This document shows, one piece after another, positions 3,052 to 49,890 of a stretch of DNA of 64,000 bases. The position numbers and the translations under genes are program-made. The stretch is from Thermoplasmatota archaeon (GTDB lineage Archaea; Thermoplasmatota; Poseidoniia; Poseidoniales; Thalassarchaeaceae), in NCBI GenBank assembly GCA_030828405.1, contig JAURCP010000002.1:3169-67168 (forward strand). The letters run 5' to 3'. The notes under the pieces are model-generated. The model saw nothing but the letters and a program-made list of their open reading frames with translations, made no database searches and was not told where the DNA came from. Position 1 is the stretch's first letter. Every line of letters starts with the position of its first letter.

Positions 3052-5820
3052 GTGAACAGCATGCTAGACGAAATGAAAAAAAATAGTGCAACAACAATGT
3101 TAGTGATAGGTATAATGCTAGTTGCAGTTAATGCGACGTTGATTACATCGATAACTGATGACCTTATTTCAAATGGATTGGCAGAAAGTTTGGTTTCAGA
3201 TTCTTATGATGAAGAATCAGATTATGATGAAGAATGGGCTACCTCAGAGTATGAAAAGGTATATTTTGGATACAATCTAACAAATATTAGTGCTTTATCC
3301 AGTGATGACCCATCAAATGCATACACTAAAGTTGGGCCATGGATTTACAATGTTACCTCTTACAAAGAAATTCTAGAATGGAATGATGAAGAAGGAACAA
3401 TGACTTATTCGGAATATGAAGTATTCGATTGGTGCGAAGAATGTACTTGGGAAGATCGCGATGGGACAATGGGTCCTGTTGGAGAAATTTACGATTCTGT
3501 ATCTGGTGAAAATGATTTTAGAAATGTAAATATTTTATGGACAGCACAGAGTATAGCAGCTATAGGCGCTGTAGGTTTTGAATATGGAGAACCTTTTGCA
3601 AAAGCTGGTTTCGCTACAAACATGATGACATTGGAGCTCTCAAGTAAAGCCCCTAGTATATGGTCCGCAGAAGATACTGAAGATAATTTGAATTTAGCTA
3701 TAGAATATATGATAGGTGCTGGAATGGATTCAGTTTCTGCTGAGGCAGCTGCACCAATACAGATAATGGATTTAGCATATAATTCATGGAATAACAGTTC
3801 TAGTGCTGGAATAATGACTCCAGATTTTACTTCATCCGCTGATATGATATTGAATGATGCGGTTGATCCTTCAACAGGAATGTGCATAGCTCTGACTTGT
3901 GATTACGGACACATGTTGGTGGCAGGAATGGGAGAGCCAAGTGATTCTGTGACACCTATGAGAGCGATGCTGTACGGGTATGCAGATGTTGCAGAACCTG
4001 AAAGAACTCATATTGATTGGGCTGTTTATGCATTGGCAGGAACTAATTTCTTGACGAATGGTGGAGGTGCAGATTTGACTACTACCGATAATAATAGAGA
4101 GAGATTACAAACAGTCAGCGGAGTAGATATTGCTAATCCAGATGCCCTTGATTTCCTTCTATTTGGGATTAACGAAGATGGATTAGCACAAGGAATTATC
4201 CAAGAAACTGATTTCAATGGCTTACCACTCAATGGGAATATATTATTCCTTCTTGGGGCACAGTCAAACGCTTTTGATACCATGAGTATCTATGGAATTG
4301 GTTTATCGCAACTCCTAGGTATTGCTGATTGGGCTGGTGCATGGATTGGTATGTTAGGAGTTCCTGCTGATTTCCCAATGATTTTAGTCGGTGAATCTGG
4401 TACAATAAACGCTAATGACTGGTGGGTAGAATCTTTCGGAGGAGAAGAACCGCTTGCTGGAGGATATATTCCTCTTGGACTCAACATGGGTGAATGGGAA
4501 GGACAAATAGATATGTCTGCAGAAAGTGTTAGAAATATTCTTTATGATAGCCCATATGCCCTAGCAACCACTGATTTTGGTTCTGAATTTATGTATGGTG
4601 AAGCTAGTGGCAAAACTCTTCCACAAGGCACAGATGGTGCTGAAACAGGAGGTACAGTTTACGATTGGAATAATGAATATGTAGCAGATTTATACGATAT
4701 CACTGTAGATGAAGCAGGAGCTCTTAGAAGTTACATCGCAGATTTCATGGTGGATATTGTTGTACCTACTTTACTTACTTTCCAAACCGGTTCTGAAGCA
4801 TATACAACACAAACAGTTAATCAATGGCTATTTGGTTCGTGTGACGCAGTGCTATTATCCCAATATGGTTCAGAAAATTGTTTCTCTAGTCTTGAAACAA
4901 ATATGACATACTATGGTTCAATTTCAGAAGATCATCCTGATGGTTTGTCGACCGGGGATTATTCAGCCTATGTAATGAGCACTAGAGGCGAAACAATAGG
5001 TCAGAGGTTAATGCAAGGATATGTTAATTCAGATGGCGATGGACTTTGTGACTTCGATTACAGTGAAGCAGGCGTATATCTTGGAGGATATGGTACTGGT
5101 GGATTGGAATGTGAAGATGGACAAATCTATGGAATGACTGAATATTTGACATGGAGAGCACCACACAGAGATATTCTGAACTATGGATTGATGGAAGAGG
5201 CCGTTGGTTCGAGTTCTGATTATGCAATTCTAGGAAACTCAGTCGGAGCCATTGGTAATGCCGATGAATCATTCAAATATAATCTTGGAGGATATGCTGT
5301 AGCTGAAACAATAGTTGGTGAAGAAGTAGAGTTCAAAGGAATTCCAATGGTTGAACACAGTATCGTTCTTGATGCGACTCAGCATAATATACAGTCAAAA
5401 TTAATCCCTCCTAGTTTATCTCCAGTTTCAGTAACGCCGGGAGTTTTGGGGCTGTATTTCAATGGAAATATCGATATGAAAGTAGAGCCAAATACAAATG
5501 CAATAATGTATGGTCATGGAACTCTACAATTTGTTCTAGACATCAGAGGGCTCGGTTATGATAGCCCGGATCTTATAAGTGAAGGAGCAACAGATGCTTA
5601 CCCAGTATTTGAGATTGCAATACACAGTGAAATAGGTGACGAAGACGCAGATGAACTAAGTAAAGCAACAGATAGTTTAGGCATTCTAGGATTCACAAAT
5701 CTAGATGCACCATCTCCAATTAGTTACTTGAATATCGTACAATTAGTAGTTTATCTTGTAGGTTTAGGATTGGCTGTAAATGGTGGTATGAAAATGTCAT
5801 CAAAGAAAGAAGAAGAGTAA
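3052..5820 (+). CDS. CD36/LIMP-2/SR-B (scavenger receptor class B) family-like membrane protein with N- and C-terminal TM helices and a large internal insertion
   Basis: 922-aa ORF starting at GTG 3052, with an alternative ATG at 3061. TM helices sit at aa 15-33 and about aa 890-912. Four collinear CD36-family motifs are present:
- YFGYNLTN...VGPWIYNV...EGTMTYSEYEVF (aa 66-125)
- QTVNQWLFGSCDAVL (aa 587-601)
- EFKGIPMVEHSIVL (aa 760-773)
- YPVFEIAIHSEIGDEDA (aa 850-866). Confidence 0.6.
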   Translation: MNSMLDEMKKNSATTMLVIGIMLVAVNATLITSITDDLISNGLAESLVSDSYDEESDYDEEWATSEYEKVYFGYNLTNISALSSDDPSNAYTKVGPWIYNVTSYKEILEWNDEEGTMTYSEYEVFDWCEECTWEDRDGTMGPVGEIYDSVSGENDFRNVNILWTAQSIAAIGAVGFEYGEPFAKAGFATNMMTLELSSKAPSIWSAEDTEDNLNLAIEYMIGAGMDSVSAEAAAPIQIMDLAYNSWNNSSSAGIMTPDFTSSADMILNDAVDPSTGMCIALTCDYGHMLVAGMGEPSDSVTPMRAMLYGYADVAEPERTHIDWAVYALAGTNFLTNGGGADLTTTDNNRERLQTVSGVDIANPDALDFLLFGINEDGLAQGIIQETDFNGLPLNGNILFLLGAQSNAFDTMSIYGIGLSQLLGIADWAGAWIGMLGVPADFPMILVGESGTINANDWWVESFGGEEPLAGGYIPLGLNMGEWEGQIDMSAESVRNILYDSPYALATTDFGSEFMYGEASGKTLPQGTDGAETGGTVYDWNNEYVADLYDITVDEAGALRSYIADFMVDIVVPTLLTFQTGSEAYTTQTVNQWLFGSCDAVLLSQYGSENCFSSLETNMTYYGSISEDHPDGLSTGDYSAYVMSTRGETIGQRLMQGYVNSDGDGLCDFDYSEAGVYLGGYGTGGLECEDGQIYGMTEYLTWRAPHRDILNYGLMEEAVGSSSDYAILGNSVGAIGNADESFKYNLGGYAVAETIVGEEVEFKGIPMVEHSIVLDATQHNIQSKLIPPSLSPVSVTPGVLGLYFNGNIDMKVEPNTNAIMYGHGTLQFVLDIRGLGYDSPDLISEGATDAYPVFEIAIHSEIGDEDADELSKATDSLGILGFTNLDAPSPISYLNIVQLVVYLVGLGLAVNGGMKMSSKKEEE

Positions 5821-5898: not shown

Positions 5899-6969
5899 GT
5901 GAGGCTAAGATATATCGATCGTATTCGAGCTATTGCCATACTCTGTATGGTTCAAGTACACACAGCTGCGATAATACCACCAGAAGGAATATCAGTTGGT
6001 CATCCAATAGCATTTGTTTCTGCTGCAATTGGAGGTATGGCGGCACCAATGTTTGTCACCATTTCAGGATGGGGAATATTTCGTAGTGCTATCAGAAGAA
6101 GAAAATTAGCAGATAATGGTATTTCTTCTTGGATATATTGGATTATCCCGCGGATAATTATACTAACTATTTGTCAATTATTGGTTAACTCAGCATTGTC
6201 TATAGACAGAGGAGGAAGGTTCGATTGGATGACTCCGGGGGTTCTGACATTATTGGCATTAGCATCTCTAATAGGGCCACTGATAGTATATTTAACAAAG
6301 AAACAAAGATTTTCTATGATGCTAATATTTATGATTTCACCCCTAATTATTGGCGATTTGAATGGAAATGAGCTTTATTGGAGTGAAAGAGTATCATCAA
6401 TCGGAATAGAAGGATGGGTTGAGAGACTTCTATTGAATGGCACCTATCCGGCATTGCCATGGCTGACATTCATATTTTTAGGGAGTTTAATAGATGAAGA
6501 TAAAGAAAATTTAGATGAACAAAATATGGTTATTAAGGTTGGACTAATCATTATCGCCATTAGTATGATTTATTCATTCTATGAAAGAATACCATGGGCC
6601 CTTACGGAAGGAAATGCAATACTAACTTTTTTCCCAGCAAATACCATGTTTATTCTCACCTCCAGTATATTTGTAGTAATATTATTCAGGATTTTAGGAG
6701 AGGAAGAAACATCAGGTGGAGAGCCTTTTGGAGGTGACAAAATGTCATGGTTAGAACCTGCTGGAAGGTTATCTCTAACGATATATGTAGCACACTTTAT
6801 TTTTCTAGGAATTATTGCATATGAGATGCAAAATCAACCTCGATTAGAAATTTACACTGCATTTTTGTTTACGATTTTACACACATCTATATGGATTCCG
6901 TTGTCAATATGGCATGAGAAATATATTCCTAAAATTTCTTTTGAAGAATTACTTAGGAAACTCAATTAA
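5899..6969 (+). CDS. Multi-pass membrane acyltransferase-like protein (DUF1624 / heparan-alpha-glucosaminide N-acetyltransferase catalytic-domain-like)
   Basis: 356-aa ORF with a GTG start. The N-terminal RLRYIDRIRAIAILCMVQVH matches the R..lD..RG.A...M signature of this family. About 9-10 hydrophobic helices. It lies 78 nt downstream of the CD36-like gene on the same strand. Confidence 0.5.
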   Translation: MRLRYIDRIRAIAILCMVQVHTAAIIPPEGISVGHPIAFVSAAIGGMAAPMFVTISGWGIFRSAIRRRKLADNGISSWIYWIIPRIIILTICQLLVNSALSIDRGGRFDWMTPGVLTLLALASLIGPLIVYLTKKQRFSMMLIFMISPLIIGDLNGNELYWSERVSSIGIEGWVERLLLNGTYPALPWLTFIFLGSLIDEDKENLDEQNMVIKVGLIIIAISMIYSFYERIPWALTEGNAILTFFPANTMFILTSSIFVVILFRILGEEETSGGEPFGGDKMSWLEPAGRLSLTIYVAHFIFLGIIAYEMQNQPRLEIYTAFLFTILHTSIWIPLSIWHEKYIPKISFEELLRKLN

Positions 6970-9900
6970 TAGTTGTAGTCCAACTTATTGGACCGAACCA
7001 AACACTATTTACTCCATTTGATGCTTGAATCCTTCCATGATAAGTAGTTGCACTTGATAAATCAGAGATAGTTGTTGAAAAGTTTCCAACGGATGTTTCA
7101 CCTAGATTACTATTATAATTCCAACCTGTATCCTGATTTCCCATATCGCTAATACCATAATAAATGGTCAATGAAATATCAGTCCCATTATCGTAAGTTT
7201 CCCAAGAAATATCTACAGAGTTTGAGGTTTCATTATCTGGCACAATGTCTCTAATTATTGCATCATAAAAGAAAAAATCCTTTCTTAGTGGGTCATCGAC
7301 CCAAACTGGGAAATGAGATAGTGAACTGAATGTTTGTTGTGTTAATGGAAATCCCCAAGCAGAATGATACGGTGCTAGATTGTATCCTGTAGAATTGGAT
7401 AGATGCAGAACCCATGCATTGAATTCCTCATCTCCGGTAGAAGGCACTTCTGAAGAGGGGAGCGTGTAATAGACAGATAGTGCTTCTGTAATTGGGCCCC
7501 ACCCCCATTCTTCTTTAATCAGAATATATGTGTCCAAAGCTATCCAAACTGACCAATTTGAAATATTAGAACCATCATTAAAATAAGACTCCATTCGTAC
7601 TTCTCTTTGTTCTGGATCTACTGCGCTATGACCTTCTATTCCAACTAAATCCTCCATCAAATATACGCTTGCAAAGTTACACCCTGTTTCAGTAGTTCCC
7701 GGAAGTGTCGATGGCATCCACTGATGATTGTGTCCCAACTCATGGAACATACCCCAATCTCCATTTTCACTCATATGTGTATGATTAACCACATCAGGTA
7801 CACTTAGATCGTGCGCCATAAAGGGATAACCTGAATGCATCCAACCGGCTGAAATTTGAGCATCGAAAACTGCTCTTTCTACTCTAGGCCATGGTTCAAA
7901 ACCATACAATTCATGTTCCATATTCAATGCAATATCCCACCAATTCATCAATTGACTTGGATTATCCAGTTCACGTATCTCTAAACTGGGAACTGTCATA
8001 ATAAAGTTATTCGAAACTAATTCGGCCCATGGAGCGGGGTTGCTTCTCTCAGAATAAATCCATTCAAAATCGGAGGTTTCGCCTAATACAAACATTGGTG
8101 CCCTAATGGCTCCAGAAATAGTCAAATTAATCTCACCATAATTAGACCCTGCAGGAATATAAACATAAATCGGTCCTCCAAAGGCATTAGCCACCTCTGT
8201 CGAAGTATTTTCTACAGACCATGTAGTAAATATTCTTGAATGGCGCTTGATGATATCTTTATTCCAGAGACTGTCAGTATGAGCACCTATTAAAATTGAA
8301 AATCCTAAATCAGAAGTTGCTTCATCTACATTTACAGTAACTACCTCTCCAGCAGCAGCATAGAGACCCGTTGACATTCGTATAGAACTTCTAGGATTGG
8401 AATAACCGAAATTGCCAGGAAGACCACTTTGAGTACCATTAACGGTAACAGTTCTAGTTATTCTTGTGGCATTCGAAGGTACTTCACCTGGGAACTCAAT
8501 ATGGCTGGGATGAGCTGGTAATTCATCTGCAGGGAGGCCGAACATCAAGGCATCCTCTAATCGTAGAATGATGTCTGAAACAGGATCTACGCCTAGTTCG
8601 TAACCAGTAGTGCTCCAAAGTGTAGAGTAGGGTATTATCGTATAACCTGTTAAATTCACTAAATCACGTAAAGGTGACCAGAAATTAGTATAATCGAGAG
8701 TTACAATCCAAGTGCAATCAGAAAGTGCAGAATATGCTGCGGCTGCATCTTCAGTACTCATTTCAACTCCATCGATTCTATCTGCAAATACTCCTGAAAT
8801 TGCATTACTAATTGTTGAGTATTCATTAGGCATATTCTGGAAAAATACATCATTATATCCCCAATCACTAGAAACAAAGAGACCTGTTTCTTTTGCAATC
8901 TTATTCCCAGGATAATTGTGAGCTACATCCGTATTTGAGTAGGACCAGTACCATGCGTGGCCACCCATTATTATACCACCACCAGAGAGCATAAATTGCA
9001 CTAGAGCATTATTATCTGAATCATCATGCCCATTCCAAAACTCATCTAGTAAACAATCAAGTCCACTTAAATCAGAAGGTGTTACTGAAAGATGGACATT
9101 ATGACCTGCATCTGTTAATTTGTCTTCAAAATCATCGAACCCTGAACCATATGCCAATCCAACTTCTGCATTCTCTCCACATACCCACTCAACGGCTCTA
9201 AGTGAGAATGGATGATTTTGGGAGTCTACCCAACTTTCATGCCCATAACCTAAAATTTTTCCTTTACCTACATGAGATGCAGATACTACTGGAATACCAC
9301 TTGATTCAAAAGCCACTGGAAATGACCACTCACCAATTGGTAATATTGGAGATGGCCATCCTCCAAAATCTGCCTCACTCATTCCCCTCAATAATTCTTC
9401 TTGATCAGCGCGTAAATCATGAACTACGATCCAAATATTTAACCCAACAGTACCACCAGTATTATTTGCCCAAATTGTATATTCTCTCCAATTAGTTCGA
9501 GAATCAGGAATACCTGATATACTACCATTACCGTTCAGAGTTAAGCCCGAAGGAAGTTCTGGGTATACTTCCCAAGTATCAATATTTGGTCCATTATTAA
9601 TTACTGGAATTGTAATACTTTTATTTGAATGAAGAATATACTCTGATTCTATCCAATATATCTCATCAGGAGGCAAGCTACTGATTTTAATATCAATAAT
9701 TGTTGTAGAATAACCTCCAGAGTTATTAGCCCATATTTGATAATTTATTGTATCTTGAATAATAATGGGAGTTCCATATATTTCACCAGTTTGAATATCA
9801 AAATTGAGTCCTTGAGGAAGATTAGGGTATATCTCCCAAATTTCTGGTGCCCCACCGGACCAAGTTGGTGTTAAATTTGGAATTATCTGATTAATGGTAA

Positions 9901-10942
9901 AATCAAGATTATACGGTTCATAAAGAATATTTAATGGAGAAATATCAATCACTGAAAGAAGGAAGTTAATAGTAATTGAACCCCCTGTATTCGAAGCAGT
10001 CACGTAATGTTCTCTTAAGGCATGTAATTCTGTAGGGGAACCCATAATTGATCCATCATTTGTATTGAAAAAAAGACCTGCTGGTAAAGGGGGTTCAATT
10101 GTCCAATTAATTACTTCTCCACCTCCTATATTTGGGAACTCAACTATCGTTTCACCGAGAAGCCATTGAAATATTTGACTTGAATAATGTAAATTTTCAG
10201 GTTCTTCATGAATGGTGATTATTCTAATATCAGTATATGCTGAACCTCCTGAATTTGTGCCTGAGACAGTATGATTACTATCTCCAAGTTGCTGAGCCAC
10301 ACCATATATTTCTCCCGAAGCACCAATTTCAAGTCCAAGAGGTAACTCGGGAATGACATCCCATGTTTCAATGAACCCTCCGTAAGTAAACGGAACACCA
10401 ATCCCACAGGCTCTTGAAAATTTACAAAAAATCTCATTTGAAGTGTAATTGATACTCTCTGGAGGTTGTGATAAAATTTCTATCTCTAGAATGAAAACAC
10501 TGGAGCCAATTACATTTGTACCAATTATTGTATAACTAGTCAACAAATTTTCAGATTCAGGAGTTCCGGAAATTATACCATTATCAGGATCTAAAATTAT
10601 TCCTTCGGGTAATCTTGGATTAACTAGCCAATTTTGCGGACCATCTCCAATAAAGCTTGGAGTTAATGCTTGCATATCTTGACCTACTACTAGTAACAAT
10701 GTTTCTTCACCGTAATCTAGGTTTTGTGGAGATGTCATCAATCTGCAATATTCGCCTGTAAAAACTTCATTGAAAAAACAGTCATCTTCTGTTTCCCCAT
10801 CTATATCGCAAGTAGGTTCATCTGGCTCTAATTCACAATTCACTAATTCGGAGCTTGAGTCATCTTCGCCAAATAATGACAAACAGCCAGGAGTCAAAAT
10901 CAAGAACGTCAACAGAATAGCCAATGCTTTAATTGAAGACAT
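6962..10942 (-). CDS. Secreted M60-like (enhancin-like) zinc metallopeptidase with about 5 He_PIG/cadherin-like Ig repeats and a C-terminal FN3 domain
   Basis: 1326-aa ORF.
- Signal peptide ending in ...LILTPGC, so possibly a lipoprotein.
- Repeated LP.G(L/I)..(D/N)...G.I.G.P motifs: LPEGIILDPDNGIISGTP, LPLGLEIGASGEIYGVA, LPAGLFFNTNDGSIMGSP, LPQGLNFDIQTGEIYGTP, LPSGLTLNGNGSISGIP.
- HEXXH zinc site MFHELGHNHQW at nt 7721-7744, with a downstream Glu (TTE).
- FN3-like C-terminus (DISWETYDNGT...YHGRIQASNG). Confidence 0.8.
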   Translation of the reverse strand: MSSIKALAILLTFLILTPGCLSLFGEDDSSSELVNCELEPDEPTCDIDGETEDDCFFNEVFTGEYCRLMTSPQNLDYGEETLLLVVGQDMQALTPSFIGDGPQNWLVNPRLPEGIILDPDNGIISGTPESENLLTSYTIIGTNVIGSSVFILEIEILSQPPESINYTSNEIFCKFSRACGIGVPFTYGGFIETWDVIPELPLGLEIGASGEIYGVAQQLGDSNHTVSGTNSGGSAYTDIRIITIHEEPENLHYSSQIFQWLLGETIVEFPNIGGGEVINWTIEPPLPAGLFFNTNDGSIMGSPTELHALREHYVTASNTGGSITINFLLSVIDISPLNILYEPYNLDFTINQIIPNLTPTWSGGAPEIWEIYPNLPQGLNFDIQTGEIYGTPIIIQDTINYQIWANNSGGYSTTIIDIKISSLPPDEIYWIESEYILHSNKSITIPVINNGPNIDTWEVYPELPSGLTLNGNGSISGIPDSRTNWREYTIWANNTGGTVGLNIWIVVHDLRADQEELLRGMSEADFGGWPSPILPIGEWSFPVAFESSGIPVVSASHVGKGKILGYGHESWVDSQNHPFSLRAVEWVCGENAEVGLAYGSGFDDFEDKLTDAGHNVHLSVTPSDLSGLDCLLDEFWNGHDDSDNNALVQFMLSGGGIIMGGHAWYWSYSNTDVAHNYPGNKIAKETGLFVSSDWGYNDVFFQNMPNEYSTISNAISGVFADRIDGVEMSTEDAAAAYSALSDCTWIVTLDYTNFWSPLRDLVNLTGYTIIPYSTLWSTTGYELGVDPVSDIILRLEDALMFGLPADELPAHPSHIEFPGEVPSNATRITRTVTVNGTQSGLPGNFGYSNPRSSIRMSTGLYAAAGEVVTVNVDEATSDLGFSILIGAHTDSLWNKDIIKRHSRIFTTWSVENTSTEVANAFGGPIYVYIPAGSNYGEINLTISGAIRAPMFVLGETSDFEWIYSERSNPAPWAELVSNNFIMTVPSLEIRELDNPSQLMNWWDIALNMEHELYGFEPWPRVERAVFDAQISAGWMHSGYPFMAHDLSVPDVVNHTHMSENGDWGMFHELGHNHQWMPSTLPGTTETGCNFASVYLMEDLVGIEGHSAVDPEQREVRMESYFNDGSNISNWSVWIALDTYILIKEEWGWGPITEALSVYYTLPSSEVPSTGDEEFNAWVLHLSNSTGYNLAPYHSAWGFPLTQQTFSSLSHFPVWVDDPLRKDFFFYDAIIRDIVPDNETSNSVDISWETYDNGTDISLTIYYGISDMGNQDTGWNYNSNLGETSVGNFSTTISDLSSATTYHGRIQASNGVNSVWFGPISWTTTIN

Positions 10943-12429: not shown

Positions 12430-14955
12430 ATGAAGAGTAAAAAACGTATGACTGCTATTTTGGTAATATTACTGGTTTTGTCTGTTTCCGAAACTACTTT
12501 CGGATACAGTAGCGGAGTTACAGGAGCCTCAACAAATGGTTGCGGATGTCATGGAAGTAGTGGAGGAATGACTCCAACACTGTCAGGAATACCTAATGCA
12601 GGATACGAAGGAAATACCTCATATTCCCTGAATATTGGAGGCACTGGAGGTCCCACGGGGACTAAAGGGGGATTTAATTTAGACTCAAATTTTGGTTCTT
12701 GGTCAAATCCTGGCACCAGCGCTAAAATACAAAACGGTGAAGTTACTCATTCAAATTCGAATTCAAGATCTTGGAGTGTTACATGGACTGCTCCAGCTAA
12801 TGGCTCAGGAAATGTCACATTTTCCCTTGCAGTAAATTTTGTTAATGGAAATGGAGGGACTGCAGGGGATGATTGGGCTACAAATAGTTGGATAATATCT
12901 GAGCAAGTCACTTCTAATGGTGATTCCGATGGAGATGGTTGGTCGGATGCTGACGAAGCCTCTTGCGGTACTGATTCGTCAGATAACACTTCAATACCTA
13001 CTGATACTGATTCAGACGGTATTTGTGATCCTGTAGATACTGATGATGATGGAGATGGTTGGTCAGATACTGATGAAGCATCTTGTGGAACAGAATCAAA
13101 CAATTCTACTTCAATACCTACTGATACTGATTCAGACGGTATTTGTGATCCTGTAGATACTGATGATGATGGAGATAGTTGGTCAGATACTGATGAAGCA
13201 TCTTGTAACACTGATTCTCTGAATTCAAGCTCTATACCTATTGATACCGATAATGATCGAATTTGTGACTTAATTGATGAGGATGATGACAATGATGGTT
13301 GGTTTGATGAAGATGAGTATAGTTGTGGAACTGATTCTCTGAATTCAAGCTCTATGCCTACTGATACTGATTCAGACGGTATATGTGACTCTATAGACAG
13401 TGACGATGATGAGGATGGTTGGTCAGATACTGATGAAGCATCTTGTAACACCGATTCTCTGAATTCAAGCTCTATACCTACTGATACTGATTCAGATAGT
13501 GTTTGTGATTTAGTAGATACTGATGACGATAATGATGGTTTCTCTGATGAAAATGATACCTTCCCTTTAGATGGTAACGAATGGCAAGATAGTGATGGAG
13601 ATGGTAGAGGAGACAATGCAGATGTCGATGATGATGACGATAATTGGACAGATCTAGAAGAAGCAGAGTGCAATACTGATTCATTAAATGCCTCATCGAT
13701 TCCTATGGATACTGATGATGACCATATATGTAATTTAATTGATGATGATGATGATGGTGACGGTGTAACCGATGAATTAGATTTGTTCCCCCTAGATGCT
13801 AATGAAACTTTAGACTACGATTTGGATGGAATTGGAGATAATGCTGATGATGATGATGATAATGATGGGTGGTTAGACTCAGAAGAAGAAATTTGTGGTT
13901 CTGAAAGTCAGAATATTAATTCGTTACCAGAGGATCTCGATATGGATATGATTTGTGACATCATGGATAGTGATGACGATAATGACAATGTAGATGATTT
14001 GCTAGACATATTCCCAAGAGACGCAAATGAATGGTCAGATTTAGATCAAGATGGGGTTGGAGATAATGCAGATACAGACGATGATAATGATGGATGGTTA
14101 GATGAAGATGAAGTATCTTGTGGAACTGAATCAAATAATTCACTATCACTACCTATTGATACTGATTCAGATAGCACTTGTAACCAAGTAGATTTAGATG
14201 ACGATAATGATGGATTTGATGATATTAATGATGCTTTTCCATTAGATGCTAATGAGAATAATGACCTAGATGGAGATGGTATAGGGGACAATTCGGATTT
14301 AGATAGAGACGGTGATAGCGTAGAAAATGAAATCGATATTTTCCCCGATAATCCCGATGAGTCAATGGATTATGATGAAGACTCAATTGGAGATAATGAA
14401 GATTTAGATGACGATAATGATGGATGGAATGATAGTATTGAGATTGAATTAGGATACGACCCACTCAACCCTGAGGAATACCCTATTGATACAGATAATG
14501 ATGGGATTGAGAATAAAATAGATACTGATGATGATGGAGACGGTATCTCTGACTCTATTGAAAACTCTTGTAATACAGATTCATTAGATTCTAATTCAAT
14601 TCCTACGGATTTTGATAATGACGAAATTTGTGATGAATTAGATATTGATGATGATAATGATGGAGCATCAGATACGCTTGATGCGTTTCCATTTGACCCA
14701 ATAGAATATTCAGATTTAGACTCAGATGGGATTGGTGATAATGCTGATGATGATGATGATGGAGATGGATGGACAGATTATCAAGAAAGTAAGTGTTTTT
14801 CTAATCCTCAGGATAGTAATAGTTTGCCTCTAGATACAGATGAGGATGGAATTTGCGATTCTATGGAATCAGAAAACTCCTCAGGATTACCCAGTTTAGG
14901 GCTTTTTAGCACGATTTTTATGATTGCATTCGCAGCGTTCGCACGAAAAAAATGA
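12430..14955 (+). CDS. Secreted TSP3-repeat (calcium-binding) surface protein with an N-terminal beta-rich domain and a C-terminal TM anchor
   Basis: 841-aa ORF with a signal peptide (MTAILVILLVLSVSETTFG). The first ~150 aa are Gly/Ser/Asn-rich and carry a CGCH motif. More than 15 TSP3-like units follow (DTDSDGICD..DTDDDGDGWSDTDE.SCGT.S). The C-terminus GLPSLGLFSTIFMIAFAAFARKK is a TM helix plus a short basic tail. Confidence 0.8.
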   Translation: MKSKKRMTAILVILLVLSVSETTFGYSSGVTGASTNGCGCHGSSGGMTPTLSGIPNAGYEGNTSYSLNIGGTGGPTGTKGGFNLDSNFGSWSNPGTSAKIQNGEVTHSNSNSRSWSVTWTAPANGSGNVTFSLAVNFVNGNGGTAGDDWATNSWIISEQVTSNGDSDGDGWSDADEASCGTDSSDNTSIPTDTDSDGICDPVDTDDDGDGWSDTDEASCGTESNNSTSIPTDTDSDGICDPVDTDDDGDSWSDTDEASCNTDSLNSSSIPIDTDNDRICDLIDEDDDNDGWFDEDEYSCGTDSLNSSSMPTDTDSDGICDSIDSDDDEDGWSDTDEASCNTDSLNSSSIPTDTDSDSVCDLVDTDDDNDGFSDENDTFPLDGNEWQDSDGDGRGDNADVDDDDDNWTDLEEAECNTDSLNASSIPMDTDDDHICNLIDDDDDGDGVTDELDLFPLDANETLDYDLDGIGDNADDDDDNDGWLDSEEEICGSESQNINSLPEDLDMDMICDIMDSDDDNDNVDDLLDIFPRDANEWSDLDQDGVGDNADTDDDNDGWLDEDEVSCGTESNNSLSLPIDTDSDSTCNQVDLDDDNDGFDDINDAFPLDANENNDLDGDGIGDNSDLDRDGDSVENEIDIFPDNPDESMDYDEDSIGDNEDLDDDNDGWNDSIEIELGYDPLNPEEYPIDTDNDGIENKIDTDDDGDGISDSIENSCNTDSLDSNSIPTDFDNDEICDELDIDDDNDGASDTLDAFPFDPIEYSDLDSDGIGDNADDDDDGDGWTDYQESKCFSNPQDSNSLPLDTDEDGICDSMESENSSGLPSLGLFSTIFMIAFAAFARKK
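12922..13524 (+). repeat. Five nearly identical in-frame 120-bp (40-aa) tandem repeats, continuing in degenerate form to about nt 14870
   Basis: Compare 12961-13080 with 13081-13200: the two share long identical runs such as tcaatacctactgatactgattcagacggtatttgtgatcctgtagatactgatgatgatggagat. Confidence 0.9.
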
Positions 14956-20732: not shown

Positions 20733-21572
20733 ATGAAGGTTGCCATCACTGCGTCAGATACTTTTGTTGCCCCATACATAGTGGAAATGTTAGGGGATGC
20801 TGCAGTAATAATCCCTGATGAAGCCATGAAAGAGCAGTTAACTATTGATGCTTTACTAACTCCTTGTAGCGCACTAATACATATTAATTCTAGGCCTGTT
20901 GAGTCATCATTTGAAAGAAATGATAGACAAACTAAATTGGAAATGATGAATGCAGCAAGACCTATTCTAGATGCCGTAGATAGGCATGGAAGTATCCACC
21001 TAATTATAGTGGGGACTCTTAGAGTTCATCCACAATGGGAACCGGGGGAACCATTTTATGGTCTGGATTCTACATTAGCACCTCGAGATACAGCAGCAGA
21101 AGGTCAGTTATGGATGGAAGAAAACGCATTAGATAGGGCACATTCTGAAAAACCTGTTAGCGTTATTAGAGCATCAAATGTACAAGGTGTTCCACTTTCG
21201 GGACCACCTGGAAATGGCATATTACATCGCTGGGCCAGAGAATCTCAAATAGGATGGATCAATGTCCCAGGTGATGGCTCTAGTCCGAAAGATTTTATCC
21301 ATATTGAAGATCTAATACAAGTGATTGGTGGAATAATCGAAAACCCCCCATTAACTAGGGAAGAAATAGCAGTTGGTTCAGGAAAAGGTATTTCTATGCT
21401 GGATCTAGCAAATATATATAATTCAAAAACTGGTTGTGAAATTGAATTAAATCAAAGCGATGAAGATGAAGTATTCGGGCTTGTGGATGCTTGGGTATTG
21501 GAGGAGAGGCTCGGTTTTAGACCTAGAATTAGTCTTGATGAAATGATAGAAGAATCTTTTGAAGTTTCTTAG
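20733..21572 (+). CDS. NAD-dependent epimerase/dehydratase-like protein with a degenerate nucleotide-binding motif
   Basis: The C-terminal region has PKDFIHIEDLIQ, which is typical of extended SDRs. The N-terminus is MKVAITASDTFVAPYIVEML rather than GxxGxxG. Confidence 0.45.
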   Translation: MKVAITASDTFVAPYIVEMLGDAAVIIPDEAMKEQLTIDALLTPCSALIHINSRPVESSFERNDRQTKLEMMNAARPILDAVDRHGSIHLIIVGTLRVHPQWEPGEPFYGLDSTLAPRDTAAEGQLWMEENALDRAHSEKPVSVIRASNVQGVPLSGPPGNGILHRWARESQIGWINVPGDGSSPKDFIHIEDLIQVIGGIIENPPLTREEIAVGSGKGISMLDLANIYNSKTGCEIELNQSDEDEVFGLVDAWVLEERLGFRPRISLDEMIEESFEVS

Positions 21573-23131
21573 ATAGAATTTACTATCAATCTTTTTCTAA
21601 TCCCGTTCCATGAATCAACTGAAACTTGTAAAGACATTTCAGTGCCTGTTAATATCTTACTAGTATCGTAATCATTAACCATTCTAACTTCAATATCATG
21701 TGTTCCAGAAGTTACATGTAAGGTATTACCTCTCCTATATTCATCGGAAATTCCAATTCCAAAAGTACGATCTACTGTATTTACTCTGAATGATAATTCG
21801 AATAAACTCCCTTTAAATACTGTAATAAGTTCTTTCTGTTCATTCAAGAATCTTGCTCCATTCATCTGACTAATTATTTCTTCTAAAGAAATATTAGTGA
21901 CGTCTGATTCAGAAGTATTGTTATCTGAAGTATTTCCATCTGTGAATGATTTAGAGAGAGGCTCACTATCTGAAACTCTTTCAGGTAACTCGACTCTATT
22001 GGGAATTTCAACTTCATTTGTTTCCGCCCAATGTTCGGAACTTTCTTGAGATACTGGTTCAACTCTATCAGAGACTTCGACTCGGCGAGATTCATTCCAA
22101 GAATCACTAGATTCTAGAGTCTCTTTATTTTCTGAGATAGGCATATCAGTTTCAGATTTAGATTCCATTGTATTTTCTTCTTTTTTAGTTCCCATATCGA
22201 TAGTTGATAGCGCACCAACTGCTGCCCCGGCAATACCTAAACCCGCTACGATTTTCGCATTATCATTTGATAATTTAGTTTTAGCAATAGTGACAACAGC
22301 GTCTGACTTAATTTTCCAAATTGCTCTAGCAGGAGCTCGGATAACCAATGGCAGTTGATTAACTTCAGATTCAAACTTTTCATCCATTGAAAGTTTAATC
22401 GAATCAATAGCTTCATCGCTCTCTGGATTTTCAAGCATTTGCCCTAATTCAAGAGACCAATTCTCTACCATTGAAACCATATCTGATTCTTCATCTTCTG
22501 AACCCTCATAGGTATCATTCTCTGAACCTACTTCATTGTCTATAATAGTAATTTTTCCAGCACCTACAAATCGACGTGTGCCCACAGGAATATTTCCATC
22601 AGCTGGAACTCTAGTCCAGCCACCGCCATACCAATCATTACTGCCATCTTGTTCTCTATCATCCAAACTCCAAGATGGAGCACCACCATCATTAGCATTG
22701 TAAAAATATAATCTACAGCCATTGGAGTTTAAATACCAATTTTTACCATTAATCTTATTAGATTGTAACCTATATTCTCCATTATACTTTTCTTTAACAT
22801 GATTTGAAATAACTAAAGATGAAGAACTTATCATAGTTTTATTCTCAATTCCTAAGAGAGCCATCAATTCATTGGAAGATAATTTTCCACTTCCATCTTG
22901 ATCGATAGCAGAAAAAATAGGTTGTAAATAAGAACGAGGAGCTCGACTACCAGTAAGTTTTTCTAAGCCATTGTCAAACTCATCAATATTAATTTCTCCA
23001 TCACCATCGAAATCAAACTTTGAAATCATTCCTTCTGCATTGAGACCCTTGCTGATTAATAATTTTTCAAGGTTTTTCATTGCAGCGGCAACTAGTTTAT
23101 CGGATATAGCCATGCGTATGCGTGAGGGCAT
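21569..23131 (-). CDS. EF-hand calcium-binding protein with a central TM-like segment, unknown function
   Basis: Two canonical EF loops, DFDGDGEINIDE and DQDGSGKLSSNE. Hydrophobic segment IVAGLGIAGAAVGALSTI. The linker is acidic and Ser-rich. Confidence 0.6.
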   Translation of the reverse strand: MPSRIRMAISDKLVAAAMKNLEKLLISKGLNAEGMISKFDFDGDGEINIDEFDNGLEKLTGSRAPRSYLQPIFSAIDQDGSGKLSSNELMALLGIENKTMISSSSLVISNHVKEKYNGEYRLQSNKINGKNWYLNSNGCRLYFYNANDGGAPSWSLDDREQDGSNDWYGGGWTRVPADGNIPVGTRRFVGAGKITIIDNEVGSENDTYEGSEDEESDMVSMVENWSLELGQMLENPESDEAIDSIKLSMDEKFESEVNQLPLVIRAPARAIWKIKSDAVVTIAKTKLSNDNAKIVAGLGIAGAAVGALSTIDMGTKKEENTMESKSETDMPISENKETLESSDSWNESRRVEVSDRVEPVSQESSEHWAETNEVEIPNRVELPERVSDSEPLSKSFTDGNTSDNNTSESDVTNISLEEIISQMNGARFLNEQKELITVFKGSLFELSFRVNTVDRTFGIGISDEYRRGNTLHVTSGTHDIEVRMVNDYDTSKILTGTEMSLQVSVDSWNGIRKRLIVNSI

Positions 23132-28207: not shown

Positions 28208-30799
28208 GTGAATGTGTTTCCAAAAGAAGAAAGGATTTGGGCTTGGCAAAAAATACCTGAATCTTCAAGAATAATATTCTTTGCCAGTATCATAATTATT
28301 ATTTTCTTAACCCCGAATTTAGCAGAAGGATATGAAAGTACTTGGGATGAAGTAAATATTAATTCAAATAATAACTATAATGCAGCAGTAATAGATTCTA
28401 ATGGCGATGCTTGGGTCTTTGGAGATAATGGAGTAATTATCCATGGTGAAAAATTAACTAATTGGAGTATAGTAAATTCACCGACTGTTGAAGATATACT
28501 AACTGCAGATTCTAATGAAAATTTAGTTGTTGCAGCTGGTAAGAATGGAGTGGTAATTTACAAAGAAATTCTTTCAAATGAATGGATAAACATAGATATT
28601 GATAATCAAACAAGAATTAACTCAGTATCAATTAACAATTTTGACGAAATTGTTATAGTTACTGATTTGGGAGGTATTCAGATTTACAAAGACAATGAAT
28701 GGTTACAAATAAATTCATTAACTTCTGAAAAGTTATTTGATATTACATTTGAGAACGAAAGAGGATTAATATCCGGCTCATCAGGATTAATTCTAGGTTC
28801 AGAAGATAATGGATTGACGTGGGAAGTAAGAGATACTCCAGAAATTGTAGCAGAATCAGAAATTATTTCTATTGGGTATTATAAGGCAAATAGGGCTTAT
28901 GCAATTACTTCTGAGGGGAATATCTTGAAATCAACCCAGGAGTCATTAACAACCACAGTTGGATATTCATGGACAATAAAAGAAATTGAATCAGAAAATT
29001 ATAGCACTAGTATGAATGTCAATTTAACTTCTTTAGAGATTTTGAGCACCACAAAGATATTATTGACAGGAGAAGAAGGTTTTGTAGCACTAAGTAAAGA
29101 TGGGGGAAATATTGTAACACCACAATTACTTCCGGATGGAAATACATATCTGAAGATTAACGATATGGCTATGGAAAACGCATTTAGGGGAATAATTGTT
29201 GGTGACAATGGAAAAATCTTCTATACTGAAAATGGAGGAGAAGATAATCCCGTTGGTTTTGAAATTATAGATTTAAGTAATTTCAATGAATTTGTAGATT
29301 TTACAAAAGATAATCTTTGGGAAGGTTTGAAAGCCACGGTGAAAATAGTCATTTTTGGAATTTTACTTGGTTTCTTTTTGGGGATAATGCTAGCCATGTG
29401 TAAAACTGCTCCAACCACATTAAAGCAAATGATTGAAAGTGATCTTGAAAAAACATTAATCTTATTTTGGATTGGGATACCAATTAGTATTTTTTCCACG
29501 AGAGAAAATGGAATTGGTCTAGGCATATTCACATTCCTATCAATAATTTCTATATCCATATTATTAGATCAATATATCAATAAGAAAAACACAGAATCAG
29601 ATGGTTTTCTAGGCATCTTGATACCTGAACAACATAGAAATAAGGTGATTAAAATACTAGGGTTATCACTATTAATTGGTGTGCCAATTTCAGGAGGAAT
29701 GAATATTAATGGGGGGGTAGAATTAATCTATTCAGCGCTGGTTGATTTTCATGATTTTCAACTTGGTTCAGATACTCCAAAGTTATCAGCACAGCTAGCA
29801 TATATCTTTGCCCCAATTGGAAACCCTAGCGCATTCTTTGCATTAATAATTGGAATTGGTTTGACTTATTTAGGAATTTTATTTATTTTGACAAATGGTA
29901 CTTTTACTAAGAAAACAATTTATGCGGGTAAATTAATATTGTTAGTGATTTTATGGACGGTAATTTTGACGGAATTATTCGTGGGCTTTAATTTAGATAA
30001 ATTTGATTTAAATGTTAGTAATTTAATGAAATTTGGTCTACTATTAGGTATTGGATTTTTCTTGACTAGAAGAATTATACCGAAACTATCTCGAAAGGAA
30101 ATCAAAATTAATGATTTCAGTATTTCAATTGACCCTTGGAGTTTGAGGCCTCTAAATAGTATAGCAACTCTTTACACAGATTTTTTCAGGAATACGCCAC
30201 TATTAGTCCAATTCATGTTTATTCATTTCGGAATGCAATTAGGTAAACACATACAAAACATTGGAGTTGATTTCACTGGAGATTTAGCAATAATTTCATC
30301 TTATCTAGGACCACTAGATAATTTAATTTCCCCATTGATTGAATATGTGAATGAGAGTTTATTCGGACCCGGAAAGAGATCATATCTTAGTGCAATTTTC
30401 GCATTGGGATTAAACTCTGCTGCCTATCAATGCGAAACAATCAGAGGAGCAATTGCGGCAATACCATCTGGACAAATGGAAGCAGGTAGAAGTATAGGTC
30501 TGACTTATATGGGAACGATGAGATTAATTATTCTTCCACAAGCAATCAGGATATGCATACCGCCTCTAGGAAATGAAATGGTCAATCTTGTATTAAATTC
30601 ATCTTTAGCCAGTGTGATTGCATATACAGAATTAACCCGTCAAGGAAAACTAGTTGTTGCAATTACTTTCCAAATATTTTGGACTTGGGGGATGGTGATG
30701 ATTGCATATTTCGTCGTTACATGGACTCTAGCTATACTATTGAGAAGATTAGAAGAAAAAACTAGAATTCCAGGATTAGGTATTTCAGGAGGTAATTAG
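28208..30799 (+). CDS. Amino-acid ABC transporter permease (polar amino acid, HisM/GlnP type) fused to an N-terminal extracytoplasmic BNR/Ycf48-like beta-propeller, with a multi-TM insertion of about 245 aa
   Basis: 863 aa.
- Signal anchor IIFFASIIIIIFLTPNL.
- About 7 blade-like repeats: GDNGVIIHGE, GKNGVVIYKE, LGGIQIYKDN, SSGLILGSEDNGLTWE, SEGNILKST, EEGFVALSKDGGN, GDNGKIFYTENGG.
- Permease motifs LWEGLKATVKIVIFGILLG, then about 245 aa later YTDFFRNTPLLVQ, and the EAA loop GQMEAGRSIGLTYMGTMRLIILPQA. Confidence 0.75.
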   Translation: MNVFPKEERIWAWQKIPESSRIIFFASIIIIIFLTPNLAEGYESTWDEVNINSNNNYNAAVIDSNGDAWVFGDNGVIIHGEKLTNWSIVNSPTVEDILTADSNENLVVAAGKNGVVIYKEILSNEWINIDIDNQTRINSVSINNFDEIVIVTDLGGIQIYKDNEWLQINSLTSEKLFDITFENERGLISGSSGLILGSEDNGLTWEVRDTPEIVAESEIISIGYYKANRAYAITSEGNILKSTQESLTTTVGYSWTIKEIESENYSTSMNVNLTSLEILSTTKILLTGEEGFVALSKDGGNIVTPQLLPDGNTYLKINDMAMENAFRGIIVGDNGKIFYTENGGEDNPVGFEIIDLSNFNEFVDFTKDNLWEGLKATVKIVIFGILLGFFLGIMLAMCKTAPTTLKQMIESDLEKTLILFWIGIPISIFSTRENGIGLGIFTFLSIISISILLDQYINKKNTESDGFLGILIPEQHRNKVIKILGLSLLIGVPISGGMNINGGVELIYSALVDFHDFQLGSDTPKLSAQLAYIFAPIGNPSAFFALIIGIGLTYLGILFILTNGTFTKKTIYAGKLILLVILWTVILTELFVGFNLDKFDLNVSNLMKFGLLLGIGFFLTRRIIPKLSRKEIKINDFSISIDPWSLRPLNSIATLYTDFFRNTPLLVQFMFIHFGMQLGKHIQNIGVDFTGDLAIISSYLGPLDNLISPLIEYVNESLFGPGKRSYLSAIFALGLNSAAYQCETIRGAIAAIPSGQMEAGRSIGLTYMGTMRLIILPQAIRICIPPLGNEMVNLVLNSSLASVIAYTELTRQGKLVVAITFQIFWTWGMVMIAYFVVTWTLAILLRRLEEKTRIPGLGISGGN

Positions 30800-37212: not shown

Positions 37213-37689
37213 ATGGAACTAACGTGGCAAAGACATGAAATCAAAATTCTTGACAAAGAATTGAATGTTGAAAATCATATGCAAATCTCTACAAATGGTT
37301 TGGATACAAATGCACAAAGATTACATAGAGATTTTATTACAAATCTTCCTCATTTATCTGAAGTTAGGAATGACCATATGGCAATAGTCGCAGATATTAG
37401 TTCAGATATAGAGGCTGGAATAATTAATACTAGAGGTATATTATCAACTGAAGATTTATTGAATGAATTTAATGGAGAAATGGATGGGAAGAGGATTACC
37501 CTCCCAATGAAAATTACTTCTTCGGATGAAATAATTATCCAAAGTAGAATGGAAAATGAAAACCAGATTGTTCAGATAATTTCGGCAGAAATTAATGGAG
37601 GAATATTTAGGAGTTTTATTATGCCAAACGGTTGTGAAATAACTGGTATCTCAAGTGGGAACGGGATCATAGAAATTCTATTTCTTTAA
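37213..37689 (+). CDS. Hypothetical protein
   Basis: 158-aa ORF lying 37 nt after xpd on the same strand. No motif recognised. Its 3' end overlaps the convergent giant gene by 12 nt. Confidence 0.4.
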   Translation: MELTWQRHEIKILDKELNVENHMQISTNGLDTNAQRLHRDFITNLPHLSEVRNDHMAIVADISSDIEAGIINTRGILSTEDLLNEFNGEMDGKRITLPMKITSSDEIIIQSRMENENQIVQIISAEINGGIFRSFIMPNGCEITGISSGNGIIEILFL

Positions 37690-49665: not shown

Positions 49666-49783
49666 GCTTCTCGGCTGTTCACAGGGTGTTAAAGAGTTCT
49701 CATCATAAGTTCCGCATATGCATCTATTTCCGGGACATATTGGAGCCGCGCGATTCAAGACTAAGTTCGTACGCCGATGGCAC

Positions 49784-49868
49784 GCAGGGGTACCCGAGTG
49801 GTCAAAGGGGCCGGACTTAAGCTCCGGTGGCAAGGCCTTCGTGGGTTCGAATCCCACCCCCTGCACCA
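49784..49868 (+). tRNA. tRNA-Leu (UAA) with long variable arm, 3' CCA encoded
   Basis: GCAGGGGTACCCGAGTGGTCAAAGGGGCCGGACTTAAGCTCCGGTGGCAAGGCCTTCGTGGGTTCGAATCCCACCCCCTGCACCA. Anticodon stem CCGGA/TCCGG, loop CTTAAGC. Class II variable arm. Confidence 0.92.
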
Positions 49869-49890
49869 TAAACTTAAATTTGTGTGAAAA

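Follow-up and report, generated by a model that had tools for sequence, protein, structure and literature searches.

A divergent archaeal member of the CD36/SR-B superfamily with a novel apex domain in Marine Group II

The window analyzed here is a stretch of 64,000 nucleotides from a Thermoplasmatota archaeon of the Thalassarchaeaceae (GenBank assembly GCA_030828405.1, contig JAURCP010000002.1, positions 3,169 to 67,168), and our subject is a gene for a membrane protein of 922 amino acids that an earlier reading of the sequence, hereafter the original prediction, took to be a homolog of CD36, LIMP-2 and the other class B scavenger receptors (SR-B). We have very little doubt that the protein is a genuine, if highly divergent, member of the CD36/SR-B superfamily (PF01130) from an archaeon, in homology as well as in architecture, and the proposal of such a homolog in an archaeon was borne out by the Pfam scan, by hhalign comparisons of both halves, by AlphaFold and Foldseek and by a survey of related genomes. 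The family itself is already known; what is new is a highly divergent archaeal variant with a novel apex domain.

Results

Sequence homology to CD36

Pfam CD36 (PF01130) was the sole family matched by the protein, as expected from the original prediction, with a score of 38.6 bits (E=6.1e-10), which exceeds the gathering cut-off of 26.5 bits, and amino acids 18-130 were aligned to positions 1-113 of the 463 in the profile. After deletion of amino acids 136-545 the score rose to 51.1 bits (E=9.8e-14) and the match reached profile position 181. It follows that the second of the four signature motifs on which the prediction was built belongs to the domain and is collinear with it, and that the sequence in between has been inserted. 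All four motifs are located where they had been placed (amino acids 67-101, the start of which was off by one, and 114-125, 587-601, 760-773 and 850-866), and PF01130 was matched by all 31 family members that were scanned. A scan of the 922-aa protein against NCBIfam gave no match, and a single-sequence phmmer search against the Protein Data Bank (PDB) gave only a chance match to a cyanophycinase (E=1.8).

A profile of 31 family sequences was searched both against the PDB sequences and against 1.8 billion representative proteins. The sole match in the PDB was to LIMP-2; it was weak (E~0.2) and consisted of two collinear stretches that correspond to motifs 1 and 2, with residues 122-164 of the LIMP-2 chain aligned to profile positions 546-589. 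Among the representative proteins, the profile reached those with Pfam scores of 173-457 bits that mark them as bona fide CD36, again in collinear stretches, of which there were three (profile positions 7-120, 520-620 and 770-885). In the profile-profile comparison of the family with 13 bona fide CD36 proteins, hhalign returned a probability of 99.6% (E=4e-24) for amino acids 11-163, and the C-terminal sub-alignment (amino acids 540-922) on its own returned 98.4% (E=6.1e-15, 292 columns). A hidden Markov model (HMM) of the 13 CD36 proteins, run in the opposite direction, identified the CD36-like open reading frame (ORF) as its sole match among the 106 ORFs of the window (E=3.4e-31), in three collinear stretches. 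No paralog of the gene was found in the window with queries from Marine Group II (MGII), CD36, Asgard or short-form proteins.

Four motifs were aligned in register by hhalign, with TTQTVNQWLFG..D in the window protein for the CD36 consensus TRTV.EWLF..D, VEFKGIPM for v.KGI.L, IDMKVEPNTN for IDVEPITG and PVFEI..HSEIGDEDADE for P..W.E..GEI.d..A..F. Of the pan-eukaryotic long-strand motifs (M1, M2 and M17 of PMC10715195), which were compared without formal scoring, YFGYNLTN and GPWIY are present, VEPNTN replaces VEPITG and PHF(L/Y) is absent.

Since the single-sequence Pfam match spans just the first 113 of 463 profile positions, and the C-terminal part alone (amino acids 540-922, 383 aa) gave no Pfam match in a single-sequence scan, it could be argued that the similarity is spurious and reflects compositional bias or chance motifs rather than true homology to CD36. 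This explanation was effectively refuted by the hhalign comparisons, by the CD36-only HMM and by Foldseek, and we give it practically no weight. Three collinear segments were matched in both search directions, both halves obtained high hhalign probabilities, the family profile matched only LIMP-2 among the PDB sequences, CD36 and LIMP-2 were the top fold matches, and the hairpin topology described below is identical to that of the CD36 family.

Membrane topology and predicted fold

Only two hydrophobic segments were identified on the Kyte-Doolittle scale, at amino acids ~12-36 and ~889-913, and these coincide with terminal helices in the AlphaFold (AF2) model, in line with the prediction of one transmembrane (TM) helix at each end of a large ectodomain. 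The protein is thus anchored as a hairpin in the cytoplasmic membrane, with one helix per end, two short tails and an acidic ectodomain of ~850 amino acids between them (D+E 15.9%, K+R 2.8%). The tail side of both TM segments is flanked by basic residues, and the tails presumably lie inside the cell with the ectodomain facing outward. All sequences of the family alignment have the methionine at position 4 (ATG at 3061), and several homologs begin there ('MLD.M'), so this ATG rather than the GTG at 3052 is probably the conserved and true start. By eye, we also noted a TTTATATC box ~100 nt 5' of the gene and a T-rich tract after the stop codon, neither of which is conclusive.

The first AlphaFold run, with 31 close homologs, was poor, with a predicted local distance difference test (pLDDT) score of 53.5. 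A second run used an alignment of 68 sequences that included divergent MGII members and Asgard proteins, with the anchor residues in register, and yielded a pLDDT of 84.7 and a predicted template-modeling score of 0.76. In this model, long strands are formed by residues 64-76, 91-111, 116-127, 754-773, 801-830 and 849-860, the terminal helices extend over residues 2-52 and 890-921, and the region from ~163 to ~580 is mostly helical with a pLDDT that is largely >90. When the model was searched against the PDB with Foldseek, the top 13 matches were all to CD36 (5LGD, E=7.8e-6) or LIMP-2, with a probability of 1.0 and with ~345 of ~390 residues aligned, which is the outcome that the original prediction had anticipated, at template-modeling scores (TM-scores) of just 0.34-0.37. 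LmcA of Mycobacterium smegmatis followed after all of the CD36 and LIMP-2 entries (E=0.095-0.18, TM-score ~0.30). The ranking obtained with the weaker first model was identical.

The N-terminal part of the predicted barrel comprises the first three of the long strands and motif 1 (YFGYNLTN and GPWIY), followed by a conserved CxxC (C128/C131) and short strands up to NVNILW. The C-terminal part contains VEFKGIPM (motif 3), IDMKVEPNTN and PVFEIAIHSEIGDEDADE (motif 4).

A conserved domain inserted at the apex

A whole domain had been predicted to be inserted between motifs 1 and 2. The insertion and its position were confirmed, and its size had to be revised from ~450 to ~380 amino acids (~164-545). 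The N-terminal homologous block ends in the hhalign comparison at NVNILW (amino acids 158-163) and homology resumes at the helix formed by amino acids 552-579, which is aligned to the LIMP-2 stretch WSQVHFLREIIEAMLKAY, presumably the apex helix α5. The additional sequence therefore lies inside the membrane-distal apex and, as judged from these alignments, is placed between the equivalents of the LIMP-2 helices α4 and α5. The SR-B apex is normally a bundle of three helices, α4, α5 and α7, on top of the barrel; here a helical domain of ~380 amino acids stands in place of the short α4 region, before helix 552-579. The apex is the ligand-sensing region of the SR-Bs, and independent, lineage-specific expansions of it have been documented in the eukaryotes (PMC10715195).

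The insertion is mostly alpha-helical, Gly/Ala-rich and acidic, contains a conserved cysteine pair (C278/C283) and has a pLDDT that is mostly >90 in the model from 68 sequences. In 40 MGII sequences its mean column identity is 0.659, compared to 0.664 and 0.647 for the two parts of the barrel. Given that it is as conserved as the barrel and confidently folded, we conclude that the insertion is functional. No match was obtained when the insertion alone was scanned against Pfam, when its profile was searched against the PDB sequences or, in the Foldseek search of the PDB, for any region attributable to it. Nor did hhalign detect any similarity to the insertion located at the same site in the Asgard proteins (probability 0.1%).

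A second, smaller expansion with beta-hairpins is located in the middle region (amino acids ~606-735). It contains an invariant calcium-loop-like motif, GYxNSDGDGxCD (amino acids 656-667; within positions 4966-5052), and a cysteine pair, C666/C687. The motif resembles thrombospondin type-3 (TSP3) or DxDxDG calcium-binding loops, and TSP3 repeats are also present in neighboring genes; from the motif, calcium binding may be suspected.

Distribution and origin

We identified at least 219 homologs, of which the named ones are from Candidatus Thalassarchaeaceae and other metagenome-assembled genomes (MAGs) labeled 'Euryarchaeota'. When each GTDB species was represented by one genome, a scan located the gene at 77 loci with 39-89% identity, on contigs of up to 1.6 Mb and essentially all from the Poseidoniales (~70 species). 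The synteny is conserved, with a 316-aa surface protein (−), the CD36-like gene (+), an acyltransferase-3 gene (+), an M60 peptidase gene (−) and a gene for SHMT (−) in this order. The survey that was proposed to separate a vertical clade from transfer or contamination thus revealed a syntenic Poseidoniales clade, and the gene belongs to the vertically inherited core of MGII, mostly of the Thalassarchaeaceae/MGIIb.

Most described members of the CD36 family are eukaryotic (PMC10715195), and 2 of the 77 loci are in MAGs with bacterial labels, so we also considered a recent transfer from a eukaryote, or a contaminating or chimeric contig that carries a eukaryotic CD36 gene. The window is archaeal, with genes for TFB, XPD helicase, split GcvP and GuaA, SHMT, a 2-oxoacid dehydrogenase complex, ArgRS and tRNAs, and its G+C content is uniform at ~38%. 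The gene is intron-less and is flanked by tRNA and housekeeping genes of archaeal type. Over 443 shared columns, the mean identity of the MGII family is ~18% to eukaryotic CD36, ~18% to Asgard CD36 and 21% to the short archaeal forms described below, as compared to 25.7% between the Asgard and eukaryotic proteins and 24.7% among the eukaryotic proteins themselves; by these values, the MGII family is the most divergent PF01130 branch among those compared here. An identity to eukaryotic CD36 that is below the level among eukaryotes, together with the synteny and the presence throughout the Poseidoniales, excludes contamination and recent transfer. These explanations, like chimerism, were effectively refuted by the archaeal context, the synteny and the low identity, and we consider them highly improbable. 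As for the two genes in MAGs with bacterial labels (L056, NYYT01000082.1, 'Pedosphaera sp.', and L067, PBPC01000098.1, 'Gemmatimonadetes bacterium'), both are flanked by the MGII genes for the 316-aa protein, acyltransferase-3, M60 peptidase and SHMT, and for this reason they are probably on mis-binned archaeal contigs.

Archaeal relatives

The family had been described in the original prediction as essentially eukaryotic, which does not hold. We found strong CD36 matches in Asgard archaea and short archaeal proteins that are both CD36-like and PorA-like, and the DUF3068 protein LmcA has the same fold (PMC8972800). The best non-MGII matches of the family profile were to the Asgard proteins (P0215, L003:885-3368; P0270-P0310, P0240, P0264 and P0269). 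These form ~45 clusters of proteins of 780-980 aa from Promethearchaeota/Lokiarchaeota, Hermodarchaeota and Hodarchaeota, score ~280 bits with Pfam CD36 and are all annotated as 'hypothetical protein'; they potentially represent an unlisted 'eukaryotic signature protein'. Some Asgard genomes contain tandem CD36 paralogs, such as ACFFAS_20980/20985.

The short archaeal proteins (P0223, L001:8001-9569; P0238, L081:62-1666) are 522-534 aa long and match both PF01130 and PF11271 (PorA/DUF3068), a family that has been described as exclusive to the actinobacteria (PMC9678360). From their sequences, they look like intermediates that link DUF3068 and CD36. A second gene, which matches PorA only, is located ~3 kb from the gene for P0223 (L001:3701-5365).

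The main survey of SR-B evolution covered eukaryotic proteomes only and placed the origin of the family at the last eukaryotic common ancestor (PMC10715195). In the full-text literature, with supplementary tables and subscription journals outside our reach, we found no link of CD36, scavenger receptors, PF01130 or IPR002159 to Asgard, MGII or archaea. Precomputed PF01130 matches for MGII and Asgard proteins are already present in public databases.

Gene neighborhood

The features of the gene and its neighbors in the window are listed in Table 1. For the 316-aa protein, which has a signal peptide, an acidic tail and a TM segment at the C-terminal end, no family match was found; it is the conserved, divergent upstream neighbor in 52 of 78 loci. 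In the 569-aa protein, an Endonuclease I domain (PF04231, E=1e-39) is combined with acidic repeats of the TSP3 type, roughly ten in number, and with a TM anchor at the C-terminus, so that it is probably a nuclease tethered to the cell surface; this nuclease-type gene is found upstream of the CD36-like gene in just 9 of the 78 loci. Located 78 bp downstream and on the same strand is the gene for an integral membrane protein of the acyltransferase-3 type, HGSNAT-like, which is the usual downstream neighbor (48 of 78 loci), with a distance of 4-6 kb between the two in many genomes. To regard an HGSNAT-like acyltransferase and a LIMP-2 homolog as a 'lysosome-like' gene pair would be over-reading, and we rejected this idea: the protein is an ordinary Acyl_transf_3 member, and in many genomes the two genes are not adjacent. 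Next to it is the gene for a secreted M60-like (enhancin/mucinase-type) peptidase of 1326 aa with He_PIG Ig-like domains, which is syntenic in 44 of 78 loci.

Table 1. Features of the CD36-like gene and its neighbors, in positions of the window
Feature	Coordinates	Strand	Basis or description
CD36-family membrane protein, whole gene	3052..5820	+	922-aa ORF, GTG start; Pfam PF01130
Basic, presumably cytoplasmic tail MNSMLDEMKK and N-terminal TM helix (aa ~12-35)	3052..3156	+	Hydropathy; AF2 helix 2-52; alignment to CD36 N-terminal TM
N-terminal CD36 barrel part (aa ~64-163)	3241..3540	+	Pfam profile 1-113; hhalign 99.6%; AF2 strands
Family-specific apex insertion (aa ~164-545, 382 aa)	3541..4686	+	Deletion raises CD36 score from 38.6 to 51.1 bits
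Apex helix (aa 552-579), strand 584-588 and TTQTVNQWLFGSCD motif (motif 2)	4687..4866	+	Profile against PDB; spliced Pfam match; hhalign C part
Expanded middle region (aa ~606-735), beta-hairpins	4867..5256	+	Invariant columns; mostly gaps in CD36 profile; pLDDT 74-88
C-terminal CD36 barrel part (aa ~736-875)	5257..5676	+	hhalign 98.4%; HMM profile 770-885; AF2 strands 754-773, 801-830, 849-860
C-terminal TM helix (aa ~889-913) and charged, presumably cytoplasmic tail KMSSKKEEE	5716..5820	+	Hydropathy; AF2 helix 890-921; alignment to CD36 C-terminal TM
316-aa signal-peptide protein	8-958	−	
569-aa protein, Endonuclease I domain	1221-2930	−	PF04231
Acyltransferase-3 / HGSNAT-like membrane protein	5899-6969	+	
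1326-aa M60-like peptidase	6962-10942	−	
841-aa protein, Reeler-like	12430-14955	+	PF02014
520-aa EF-hand protein	21569-23131	−	PF00036
863-aa beta-propeller/permease fusion	28208-30799	+	
2987-aa giant protein	37678-46641	−	
1052-aa ORF	46711-49869	−	
tRNA-Leu	49784-49868	+	

In 38-40 of the 78 loci, which span the divergent subfamilies, the CD36-like gene is the third in a tight co-directional cluster, where it is preceded by a gene for a signal-anchored acidic protein of 520 aa, for which no family match was found, and by a gene of the TctA family of carboxylate transporters (for example L015:4682-10742 and L052:4696-10670). In 30 loci this cluster is followed by a gene for a surface protein of 1029 aa with phospholipase D (PLD)-like and lamin-tail domains.

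Further away in the window, the 841-aa protein has a borderline match to Reeler (22.5 bits with a cut-off of 21), which is known mostly as a eukaryotic domain, and a bacterial TSP3 repeat. Canonical EF-hand motifs are present near the N-terminus of a 520-aa protein encoded in the window (E=2.5e-11). The 863-aa protein is a fusion of a BNR/YCF48-like beta-propeller and a BPD_transp_1 permease, and its gene is followed by one for an ATP-binding cassette ATPase. The giant protein of 2987 aa contains a transglutaminase core, a Big_3_5 domain and TSP3 repeats, and is followed by an ORF of 1052 aa without any Pfam match, the 5' end of which overlaps a tRNA-Leu gene on the opposite strand, so that its true start is probably located further downstream.

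Discussion

In CD36, SR-BI and LIMP-2, a hydrophobic ligand is captured at the apex and passed via a tunnel through the barrel to the membrane. The tunnel and the lipid ligands of the CD36 family are found across Eukarya (PMC10715195), and LmcA/PgfA has been implicated in the trafficking of lipids or lipoglycans (PMC8972800, PMC9678360). The best overall explanation, and one that we hold to be slightly more probable than not, is that the MGII protein is a CD36-type surface protein with an apex recognition domain and a role in the handling or uptake of lipids. The apex domain of ~380 amino acids would then serve as a module for the recognition of ligands or particles, and fatty acids or other lipids would travel by way of the barrel between the cell exterior and the archaeal membrane, a mechanism to which we would give nearly even chances by analogy with the known systems. 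The direction that we favor is uptake, in which exogenous fatty acids or lipids would be caught by the apex and delivered via the barrel to the membrane. We consider this the most likely direction because the MGII archaea are photoheterotrophs with beta-oxidation genes that are widespread and highly transcribed, and a catabolism of fatty acids and lipids has been widely inferred for them (PMC9723583). Uptake in particular is nevertheless a tentative proposal. Also counted in favor of a lipid role is the TctA gene, which directly precedes the CD36-like gene in about half of the loci.

Several observations weigh against this explanation. The TM-scores, which are normalized to the target, are modest, and the root-mean-square deviation of the Foldseek matches is ~10 Å, so the geometry of the barrel may differ substantially from that of CD36. 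The CD36 segment 'PHF(L/Y)..AD..G..P' is missing from the protein and 'EP.TG' is altered to 'EPNTN'. In the clade to which the window belongs, the TctA cluster is absent, no genes for lipid metabolism were found within the 64-kb window, and the conserved neighbors are mostly surface hydrolases (the nuclease and the M60 peptidase) and the acyltransferase-3. A general 'surface protein island' would account for these neighbors no less readily than a lipid pathway. The PLD-like neighbor in other lineages is at least as similar to the PLD-family nucleases NucT and DrmC (NCBIfam) as to phospholipases and looks more like a nuclease, and we did not use it, in the sense of a phospholipase, as evidence for lipid processes.

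Lipids could also move in the opposite direction. In this case the protein would resemble LmcA/PgfA as a carrier that moves the cell's own lipids outward for the assembly or repair of the envelope or the S-layer, with isoprenoid lipids, lipid-linked glycans or carotenoids as candidate cargoes. Acyltransferase-3 proteins, the family of the usual downstream neighbor (48 of 78 loci), modify extracytoplasmic glycans, and the CD36-like gene is conserved in the manner of a core gene in this lineage, both of which would be in keeping with a role in the envelope. LmcA/PgfA are moreover the only prokaryotic proteins of this fold that have been characterized, with roles in the trafficking of lipids or lipoglycans (PMC8972800, PMC9678360), and in structural similarity LmcA ranks next behind CD36 and LIMP-2. 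This similarity is weak (E~0.1), however, the window protein has no Pfam match to PorA/DUF3068 even at E<=10, and in many genomes its gene lies 4-6 kb away from that of the acyltransferase. With its great size and its exposure, the apex domain, too, is more like a module for capture or recognition than a part of an export conduit, and we think it unlikely that the protein is an envelope carrier.

Another possibility is that no lipids are transferred at all, and that the barrel is a rigid stalk for an adhesion or recognition receptor, the apex of which would bind particles, algal surfaces, polymers or partner proteins. There are precedents for such binding, of glucocerebrosidase by LIMP-2 and of thrombospondin or PfEMP1 by CD36. 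The insertion is located at exactly the apex site and is highly conserved, the neighborhood is rich in surface-anchored modules of the adhesion type (TSP3 repeats, He_PIG, Reeler-like), and NSDGDGxCD is a possible Ca-binding loop. In the eukaryotic SR-Bs, the apex is the part that senses ligands, and it has been expanded repeatedly in individual lineages (PMC10715195). On the other hand, barrel and apex are conserved to the same degree, which argues that the barrel is more than a spacer, and no known domain for adhesion or carbohydrate binding was detected in the insertion with Pfam, the PDB sequences or Foldseek. Such binding would in any case be compatible with lipid transfer, since the eukaryotic members do both, and a receptor with a barrel that serves solely as a stalk seems quite improbable to us.

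A broader scenario can also be drawn. The 'lipid-tunnel' ectodomain of CD36 would predate the eukaryotes and belong to an old prokaryotic superfamily with MGII, short archaeal, DUF3068 and Asgard branches, the eukaryotic SR-Bs would be derived from an Asgard-type ancestor with an expandable apex, and MGII would have the first candidate for an archaeal surface system for the capture and import of exogenous fatty acids or lipids, with the apex domain as the recognition module. Taken as a whole this scenario is speculative, and we regard it as possible and rather unlikely. The archaeal branch and the Asgard proteins do make the pre-eukaryotic history of the receptor fold directly testable. MGII are among the most abundant archaea in the surface ocean and a CD36-like core surface protein is a concrete candidate for a route of lipid uptake; no uptake route for lipids or fatty acids is named in the MGII papers that we consulted. 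The apex domain is itself of interest, as a confidently predicted and strongly conserved domain of ~380 amino acids with no relative detectable by sequence or fold.

Comparison with known systems

The actinobacterial DUF3068/PorA proteins (LmcA, which is MSMEG_0317/PgfA, Rv0227c and NCgl2760) are, like the MGII protein, prokaryotic, extracytoplasmic and anchored in the membrane. LmcA has a CD36-like asymmetric beta-barrel with lipid-sized cavities and no helical bundle at the apex (PMC8972800), and comes next after CD36 and LIMP-2, with a weak match (E~0.1), in structural similarity to the MGII protein. It differs from the latter in belonging to another phylum with another envelope, and no match to PF11271 was found for the window protein at E<=10 or for 31 family members at E<=1. 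The structural similarity to LmcA fits a shared superfamily and not membership in DUF3068.

The short archaeal forms are encoded on archaeal contigs and share with the MGII family the hairpin topology, the acidic ectodomain and three collinear stretches that are matched by the MGII profile, and at 21% their identity to the MGII family is the highest among the outgroups. They differ in their canonical length without a large apex insertion, in their match to PF11271 and in their genomic context. The Asgard CD36 proteins also share the hairpin topology, have a barrel that is homologous to that of the MGII family (hhalign 97% for the N part, with collinear middle and C segments) and carry an insertion of their own, of ~300 aa, at the same apex site. 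They are far nearer to eukaryotic CD36, with ~280 bits as compared to 39-51 bits for the window protein, and unlike the MGII family they have kept PHFL and EPITG.

With the eukaryotic SR-Bs (CD36/SCARB3, SR-BI/SCARB1, LIMP-2/SCARB2 and the insect proteins SNMP and Croquemort), the MGII protein shares the hairpin topology and homology over the whole ectodomain, and it has kept GP(F/Y/W)xY, T.TV.EWLFG..D, KGI, VEP and (E/S)EI.DE.A. It is about twice the usual length, due to the apex domain of ~380 aa and the expansion of ~60-100 aa in the middle, and it has another set of cysteines. Its extra sequence is located in the apex, which is where the eukaryotic lineages have expanded as well (PMC10715195).

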